Shown here: piece after piece, positions 1 through 471 of the stretch | Position numbering within the stretch: the stretch's first letter is position 1 | Layout of the letters: every line of letters starts with the position of its first letter | Made by a program: the position numbers and the translations under genes | Notes under the pieces: model-generated | What the model was told of the DNA's origin: nothing | Databases searched by the model: none | The model's input: only the letters and a program-made list of their open reading frames with translations | Source: Escherichia coli | Lineage (GTDB): Bacteria; Pseudomonadota; Gammaproteobacteria; Enterobacterales; Enterobacteriaceae | Reading direction: 5' to 3' (one strand) | DNA length: 840 nt | Assembly: GCF_003334335.1 (NCBI RefSeq) | Contig: NZ_QOWQ01000147.1

Positions 1-471
1 CAGAAAGGGCTTATCGCATGGTTTGAAAGCGGGGATGTCAGGGCCTATAAAATCCGGTTCCCGAATGGTACGGTGGATGTGTTCAGTGGCTGGGTCAGCA
101 GTATCGGTAAGGCCGTGACGGCGAAGGAAGTGATCACCAGAACGGTGAAAGTTACCAATGTGGGACGCCCGTCGATGGCTGAAAATCTCACTAAAATTAC
201 GCCGGTTTCCGGTGTGACCATTAAACCGGAAACCCTGACCCTAGAAAAGGGGAAGGCAGGCACACTTACTGTGGCTGTGTTGCCGGATAATGCGTCTGAT
301 CCTTCATTAAGGGTGTCGACCGTGCATCGTGCGGTGGCCACAGCCACGTTGAAGGAGAACACAGTGACGGTAAACGCACTTGAGAAAGGAACAACGTCGG
401 TCGTGGTCATGAGTGATAACGGTAATTTTGTTGCTCTGGCGACAGTAACCGTTAATGTCCCTGCCGCGTAA
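1..471 (+). CDS. V: Phage major tail (tube) protein, gpV-like, 5'-partial: C-terminal part of the tube domain followed by an Ig-like (Big_2-type) domain
   Basis: Seen in sequence: frame 1 is open from position 1 (no stop before the ATG at 73), so the 73..471 ORF in the track is only the in-window part of a longer gene that starts upstream. Translation from position 1 reads [61 protein letters not shown]..., which I recognise from memory as closely matching the corresponding region of phage lambda major tail protein V. The C-terminal ~110 aa (...[13 protein letters not shown]...[33 protein letters not shown]) has the alternating hydrophobic/Thr-Val-rich beta-strand pattern of a Big_2 Ig-like domain. 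TAA stop at 469..471. No database search was run. Confidence 0.9.
142..468 (+). other. C-terminal Ig-like (Big_2-type) domain of the major tail protein; boundaries approximate
   Basis: Inference from sequence composition and pattern: beta-strand-like T/V/A-rich segments, a conserved-looking 'NxGxxxV/ATVTV' C-terminal strand, and position at the C-terminus of a gpV-like protein, where lambda V is known to carry an Ig-like domain. Domain boundaries were not computed with an HMM. Confidence 0.6.

Follow-up and report, generated by a model that had tools for sequence, protein, structure and literature searches.

Lambdoid phages are mosaic and evolve in modules, by recombination at conserved flanks. 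The tube protein gpV of phage lambda carries a carboxy-terminal Ig-like domain, gpVC, which belongs to the Big_2 family (PF02368) and of which an NMR structure is available (PDB entry 2L04; Pell et al. 2010, as cited in PMC8718954). In the lambda tail, this domain projects from the tube approximately parallel to its axis and touches the beta1-beta2 loop of the neighbouring subunit; when it is removed, tails still form and their activity is around 100-fold lower (PMC8718954). Ig-like domains on phage structural proteins have been described as modules that are both accessory and promiscuous (Fraser et al. 2006, J Mol Biol 359:496, as cited in PMC8718954 and PMC10721106), examples being those of T5 pb6 (Big_2), YSD1 (Big_1) and SPP1 gp17.1*, to which an FN3 domain is added by frameshift. 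The role in weak carbohydrate adhesion that was proposed by Fraser et al. 2006 is experimentally unverified, according to the summary given in PMC8718954.

The analysed window, a stretch of 840 nucleotides, is 100% identical over all its bases to positions 34888–35727 of the temperate Escherichia phage PhiR5_1 (PV340545.1). This phage is one of a panel of lambda-related temperate phages, the naming and use of which go back to Brenes & Laub 2025 (as cited in PMC13190303); it forms plaques and was propagated on E. coli C. Like lambda gpVC, the Ig-like domain encoded here is located at the carboxy-terminus of a lambda-type tube protein, where it follows the sequence ...GRPSMAE and comprises around 95 amino acids, and it has the same Pfam family and the same predicted fold. 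To lambda gpVC it has only 33–35% amino-acid identity and no detectable similarity at the DNA level, and from the ancestry of the remainder of V a different allele would be expected. It resembles the accessory modules mentioned above in being appended to the carboxy-terminus of a siphophage major tail protein, but differs from that of SPP1 gp17.1* in being fused in frame, so that no frameshift is needed. In PhiR5_1, one Big_2 allele appears to have been replaced by another within the prophage pool of a single species, with breakpoints located to a few bases. As in lambdoid mosaicism in general, the transitions from near-identity to unrelated sequence are sharp, occur among co-circulating E. 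coli prophages and have their crossovers in conserved sequence; in contrast to the usual situation, the boundary lies inside a gene, and the left crossover lies within a domain, not between two genes.

The gene order Z-U-V-G-T-H-M-L-K-I-J in PV340545.1 is collinear with that of lambda, and V, annotated as 'major tail protein V', sits within the tail gene order Z-U-V-G-T-H, the position expected of the gpV family. The last 156 codons of V form frame 1 of the window, and their translation is exactly as quoted in a preliminary description of this DNA. The parts of V and G listed here are on the plus strand. Positions 1–183 encode the 3' part of the amino-terminal tube domain (residues 93–153, ending in ...VGRPSMAE), assigned by Pfam, PDB matches and the annotation. 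This is followed by the carboxy-terminal module (184–468), made up of a linker, NLTKITPV, and the Big_2 Ig-like domain (Pfam core 205–447), here called the PhiR5_1-type allele, and by the stop codon TAA (469–471). A spacer of 21 nucleotides (472–492) contains the Shine-Dalgarno sequence AGGAG (481–485) of the tail assembly chaperone gene G, annotated as 'tail component protein G', the first 116 of whose 143 codons (493–840) are contained in the window before the gene runs off its end.

Pfam recognises Phage_TTP_12 (PF16461, lambda tail tube) over window residues 1–60, with an E-value of 1.8e-25, and a sequence search of the PDB matched full-length chains of lambda gpV (6p3e, 7t4f and 9mfe, E-values around 1e-48) and also 2k4q. 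V is a lambda-type siphophage major tail (tube) protein of the gpV family; by homology, it would assemble into the hexameric rings of the tail tube. Chain Va of PDB entry 9e7m (152 amino acids), a tail tube protein of known structure that is related to the tube domain of gpV, is without any carboxy-terminal Ig domain, so the module can be absent in the gpV-related family.

When the protein is compared to lambda gpV (NC_001416) by global alignment, 132 of the 153 residues of the full tube domain (86%) are identical, and 54 of 61 (88.5%) in the part encoded by the window, while of the 95 residues after ...PSMAE only 32 (34%) are. The switch takes place after codon 61 of the window, at nucleotides 183/184. 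The preliminary description had proposed near-identity in the tube segment followed by divergence, with a breakpoint near nucleotides 170–180; both are borne out by the alignment. Its span for the divergent Ig-like domain, 142–468, is right for the Ig part, but the start at 142 takes in 14 codons of the tube domain, as the switch comes only after nucleotide 183. At the DNA level, identity to lambda is 87–95% at window positions 42–191 and 35–53% at around 192–521, and is again 82–85% from 492 onwards, in G. Synonymous divergence (Nei-Gojobori) is saturated in the carboxy-terminal domain, with a pS of 0.70 and a dS of about 2.0, the dS of the tube domain being 0.89 and that of G 0.66. The other head and tail proteins of PhiR5_1 are 28–80% identical to those of lambda, of which PhiR5_1 is overall no close relative; the tube segment in the window is the best-conserved piece, and atypical of the PhiR5_1 genome in this comparison.

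The Big_2 assignment covers window residues 69–149 (nucleotides 205–447) and model positions 2–79 of 79, with an E-value of 1.5e-11, and the isolated lambda carboxy-terminal domain (PDB entry 2l04, NMR) was matched separately in the PDB sequence search, with an E-value of 3e-11. An AF2 model of the 96-residue module, calculated without templates from an alignment that contained lambda's own domain, contains eight beta-strands and has a mean pLDDT of 84. The top Foldseek matches to this model are Big_2 domains: 7quz, lambda V (7t4f) and 2l04. It can be superposed onto lambda V in the tube (7t4f) with a TM-score of 0.89 and an r.m.s.d. of 1.4 Å, at 34% sequence identity, and onto 2l04 with a TM-score of around 0.8; over the lambda structures, TM-scores range from 0.79 to 0.89 and r.m.s.d. 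values from 1.4 to 2.6 Å. The module is thus a Big_2 Ig-like domain with a predicted Ig-like beta-sandwich fold, in agreement with the Ig-like domain that had been read from the sequence; neither uniform identity to lambda V nor a lack of a Big_2 match was found. Twelve core positions are invariant in nine V-linked Ig domains, indicating that the core is kept while the surface is different. Net charge, pI and hydropathy of the PhiR5_1-type domain show no notable shift from those of the lambda domain. As a working model, the likeliest is that the domain decorates the outside of the tube in the same way as in lambda and presents a new surface. According to the preliminary description, a swapped domain could reflect adaptation to a different host surface. 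E. coli C was used to propagate phages of both allele types, and K-12 MG1655 also for carriers of the PhiR5_1-type allele, so on these laboratory hosts the allele is no obvious determinant of host range.

Because the whole PhiR5_1 genome has diverged from lambda, the lambda comparison by itself cannot tell a swap from fast divergence: a constrained tube domain joined to a weakly constrained accessory domain could give such a contrast without any exchange. Closer relatives were therefore compared. A scan of IMG/VR with the tube domain yielded 80 viral loci with tube domains 95–100% identical to that of PhiR5_1. Around 72 of them contain a lambda-like carboxy-terminal domain (ERSKITP...GNGQFAAVAE..., the ERS-type), and eight the PhiR5_1 allele (NLTKITP...); the two types of Ig domain are 36–44% identical. 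In an alignment of 11 proteins, the PhiR5_1 tube domain is 95–97% identical to those of the ERS-type, 86% to lambda, 84% to V of Stx phages, 76% to phi80 and 67–70% to HK225 and mEp460. The ERS-type Ig domain follows the same order at a faster rate (57–64% to the lambda and Stx Ig domains; for lambda and ERS-type V, 85% in the tube domain and 64% in the Ig domain), and exists in several sub-variants that are 79–87% identical to each other. The PhiR5_1 Ig domain, on the other hand, is 33–42% identical (global) to every other V-linked Ig domain in the alignment, and its divergence from lambda is neither commensurate nor congruent with that of the flanking tube domain and G, in contrast to what co-descent would give. 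With the ERS-type Ig domain following the order of the tube domains and the PhiR5_1 Ig domain discordant, the pattern is the signature of a replacement and not of accelerated divergence. An origin by recombination is supported, mainly by the sibling phages rather than by lambda.

The borders of the exchanged tract can be located by comparison with the siblings. Relative to 75 ERS-type loci, PhiR5_1 has a median DNA identity of 98.5% in the 5' part of V, dropping to 89.6% (with a tight range of 89.0–91.1%) from window position -9 to 183; no BLASTN match to these loci was obtained for 184–492, and the first 200 nucleotides of G are 94.2% identical. A comparison of nine PhiR5_1-type with 54 ERS-type sequences, all of them distinct, gives 126 fixed differences; with a single exception, these are located between -9 and 501, none being in the 570 nucleotides upstream and one in the 600 nucleotides downstream; contrasts between adjacent segments give Fisher p-values of 8e-9, 2e-12 and 1e-20. 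The tract, of which positions 1–501 lie in the window, consists of a sparse zone from -9 to around 150, with about 10% divergence, and a dense, unalignable zone from around 153 to 483; the fixed differences continue through 441–483, into the V-G spacer. Base-level alignments to PhiR12_2_star and phage 204576 give the same picture. PhiR12_2, which has the PhiR5_1-type allele, and PhiR12_2_star, which has the ERS-type, are 100% identical over 1.4 kb upstream of around codon 90 of V, and the first difference between them in this region is exactly at window position -9. The left crossover is thus located some 190 nucleotides inside the part of V that codes for the tube domain, and so away from the domain boundary, and the right crossover at the start of G; with the crossovers at these places, the exchanged unit exceeds the domain and takes in the V-G spacer. 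Of the recombinational swap at a domain boundary that had been suggested beforehand, the exchange stands and the position of the left end does not. Amid the dense differences, an island of around 14 nucleotides at window positions 193–207 or so (AAAATTACGCCGGT, encoding KITPV of the linker) is the same in PhiR5_1-type and ERS-type sequences; it could be a conserved string of linker codons, the vestige of a crossover point, or due to chance.

Within V, a second mosaic boundary is present in the tube domain. The DNA of codons 1–89 is 97.4% identical to PhiR12_2_star and 77.9% to lambda, while for codons 107–153 (window 43–183) the identity is 86.5% (pS 0.39) to PhiR12_2_star and 92.2% (pS 0.26) to lambda, so that this segment is nearer to lambda than to the siblings. 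Codons 154–248 and the spacer are unrelated at the DNA level to both. Judged from these comparisons, V is a mosaic of at least three parts. Among lambda, ERS-type and PhiR5_1-type sequences, the pS values of codons 107–153 (0.26–0.39) are about half of those upstream (0.6–0.67). In pairs with phi80, HK225 or mEp460, they are 0.6–0.74, so the low values do not reflect a general constraint on the nucleotide sequence; they are compatible with repeated exchange through the junction.

Two protein clusters of V from E. coli prophages (P0175 and P0199) combine a PhiR5_1-like tube end, with Ser121 and GRPS(M/L)AE, with different Ig variants. The Ig domain of P0175 itself seems to be mosaic, its first 25 or so residues being distinct, with a PhiR5_1-like LEKGK, and the rest ERS-like, which implies further crossover points inside the Ig domain. 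That Ser121 (in VDVFSGW) is a compensatory change for the new Ig domain was considered and rejected, Ser121 being present with other Ig variants. Elsewhere in the structural region, PhiR5_1 and the PhiR12 phages are 90–100% identical, except for troughs of around 49–54% identity in FI (around 4200–4400 in the coordinates of the locus, L001) and at the I/J junction (around 11780–11980); their cassette-like shape makes them consistent with mosaicism across the whole structural region.

The PhiR5_1-type allele is rare. Its Ig segment is present, at 99% DNA identity or more, in 14 of 5,426 complete E. coli genomes, compared with 1,438 for the ERS-type segment and 3,492 for the lambda-type segment; E. 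coli DETEC-S792 (NZ_CP116067.1) has three copies of it. DNA and protein searches of a phage collection found it only in PhiR5_1 and in PhiR12_1, PhiR12_2, PhiR12_4 and PhiR12_5, again at a DNA identity of at least 99%, the next best Ig domain there being that of phi80 at 48% (phi80-type domains range from 42 to 48%). Scans of IMG/VR for exact 24-mers and peptide patterns revealed seven contigs with the allele, all with the same backbone. The cluster of PhiR5_1-type V proteins (at 90% identity) numbers 486 proteins, where those of the common types run to thousands. DNA copies are either at least 99% identical or absent, which makes for a bimodal distribution, and no intermediates between the alleles were found among the 80 loci, the 5,426 genomes and 120 protein clusters.

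Searches for a donor were negative over a wide range of sequences. Among 1.84 billion representative proteins, a set clustered at 50% identity that could hide V proteins differing only in the Ig domain, no single domain other than the allele itself exceeded 44% identity; the list of matches was dominated by giant multi-repeat Big_2 surface proteins. A degenerate DNA probe for the peptide MSDNGNFVA gave zero matches in 100,044 species-representative genomes, and a query with the domain only against a set of 5.8 billion proteins returned three fragments. The nearest V-linked Ig relatives are found in a clade of 252-residue V proteins from E. coli and Citrobacter prophages (P0165, P0183, P0167, P0177 and P0194), whose identity is 43–52% in global and up to 56% in local alignment. 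Common to them and the PhiR5_1-type are the motifs ...TVAVxPDxASD..., ...H..VAT.T.K(D/E)N... and ...VTV.VPAA, but they differ from PhiR5_1 V in having a four-residue carboxy-terminal extension and a tube domain that is only 80–86% identical. They are too distant to be the donor, and, as none of these routes yields a close relative, the donor is unsampled.

Taken as a whole, the observations are very probably best explained by a V tube domain that acquired a foreign Big_2 allele on an imported tract of around 510 base pairs. The same pattern would arise by transfer in the reverse direction, if the PhiR5_1-type Ig domain were original to the backbone and the ERS-type had been swapped into the relatives. 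Sequence comparisons are symmetric in this respect and show only which tract has been replaced; nevertheless, reverse transfer is improbable. The ERS-type Ig domain diverges from lambda approximately in step with the tube (57–64% as against 85%), as on vertical co-descent, and is found on around 72 of the 80 loci in several sub-variants, while the PhiR5_1-type is near-invariant (at least 99%) and around 100-fold rarer, as expected of a recent arrival; moreover, tube codons 107–153, transferred together with it, are discordant with the rest of PhiR5_1 V. Being rare and near-invariant, and accompanied by a discordant 3' segment of the tube domain, the PhiR5_1-type looks like the newcomer on this backbone. 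It is parsimony and allele frequency, rather than a rooted tree, that point to this direction.

In-place divergence without exchange, with diversifying or relaxed selection acting on a domain that is accessory and exposed, would be in line with the Ig domain outpacing the tube in this family (64% versus 85% between lambda and the ERS-type) and with its being dispensable for tail formation in lambda (PMC8718954). It can be considered effectively excluded: the flanks are 98–100% identical to those of the siblings around a tract without detectable DNA similarity, synonymous sites are saturated, the non-coding V-G spacer has been replaced too, and intermediates are missing from the 80 loci, the 5,426 genomes and the 120 protein clusters alike. 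The smallest probability of all is assigned to an assembly artefact or to targeted mutagenesis, for instance by a diversity-generating retroelement. Databases do hold clearly mis-assembled V genes with internal duplications (P0153–P0163), but an artefact is excluded by the independent recurrence of the same allele and backbone, in 14 complete E. coli genomes, five complete phage genomes and seven IMG/VR contigs; the protein cluster of the allele has 486 members. Against a retroelement, no direct repeat of 30 nucleotides or more that could serve as template is present in the 12.8-kb locus (of a 51-kb genome), the annotated neighbours are all structural genes, and the differences extend beyond the Ig domain, into the spacer and a portion of the tube domain. 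The P0153–P0163 sequences (276–401 amino acids), with internal partial duplications of the tube and/or Ig domain, are mostly singletons and mostly from short contigs. Instead of true tandem-domain tube proteins, they probably represent errors in the assembly of genomes that contain several lambdoid prophages.

Downstream of the tract, G in the window is 82–90% identical to lambda G at the DNA level over most of its length and is the same as in PhiR12_2_star from 493 to around 700. The slippery heptamer of G/GT, GGGAAAG, is located around 20 nucleotides before the G stop codon (L001 6900–6906, around window 900–906) and is conserved between lambda, phage 204576, PhiR5_1, PhiR12_2 and PhiR12_2_star. 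In PhiR5_1, the annotation divides the tape measure gene H into two coding sequences (L001 7345–9678 and 9678–9917, spanning window 1345–3917); H is one continuous coding sequence in PhiR12_2 (7345–9918) and also split in PhiR12_2_star. A frameshift, a sequencing error or a premature stop, situated close to the 3' end of H, could account for the split. In the spacer, a regulatory hairpin at the Shine-Dalgarno sequence of G was considered and rejected, as the folding is no better than that of shuffled sequence (z = 0.61), and no promoter-like or terminator-like site was found between V and G. A 245-residue open reading frame on the minus strand (45–782, across V and G) was likewise rejected as a gene: the longest antisense reading frames of lambda, PhiR12_2_star and phi80 have other frames and lengths, and the one seen here crosses the non-conserved cassette, so that codon usage is the most likely explanation for it.

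The recombinant protein consists of a conserved tube-forming domain fused in frame to a carboxy-terminal Big_2 allele that is unlike those of its nearest relatives and of lambda. The tract runs from the last 64 or so tube codons through the linker, the Ig domain and the V-G spacer into the first codons of G. It would have come from a different lambdoid V-G region by homologous recombination, with both crossovers in conserved flanking sequence, on the left within the tube-domain part of V and on the right at the start of G. We infer a single event; yet the sparse (-9 to 150) and dense zones could represent two, since the tube end with Ser121 and GRPSMAE also occurs with other Ig domains (P0175, P0199). 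By homology with lambda gpV, V would stack as hexameric rings around the tape measure protein, with the tube domains forming the wall and one Ig domain per subunit on the outer surface. The swap retains the fold and the hydrophobic core and alters almost every surface residue, and it may have an effect on adhesion, tail assembly or stability.

Mosaicism in lambdoid phages, the mobility of phage Ig-like domains and intragenic mosaic joints are already known; specific to the present case are a Big_2 allele that is both rare and an orphan, and the clean borders of an exchange tract of around 510 base pairs. It is a rather speculative and doubtful idea that the 3' end of V and the start of G act as conserved 'linkers', making the Ig domain a hot-swappable surface cassette with allele-specific properties on the approximately 190 copies in the tail. 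If this were true, candidate properties would be adhesion to glycans or mucus, antigenicity and escape from a host factor that recognises the tube. As a natural case of a domain being replaced within the gene of a phage structural protein, the locus is well resolved, and it provides near-isogenic natural pairs differing in the Ig allele of the tube, PhiR12_2 and PhiR12_2_star, and PhiR5_1 and its ERS-type relatives, which may be used to address the long-standing, unverified idea that the Ig domains of tail tubes confer weak adhesion to surfaces or make the tail more stable.
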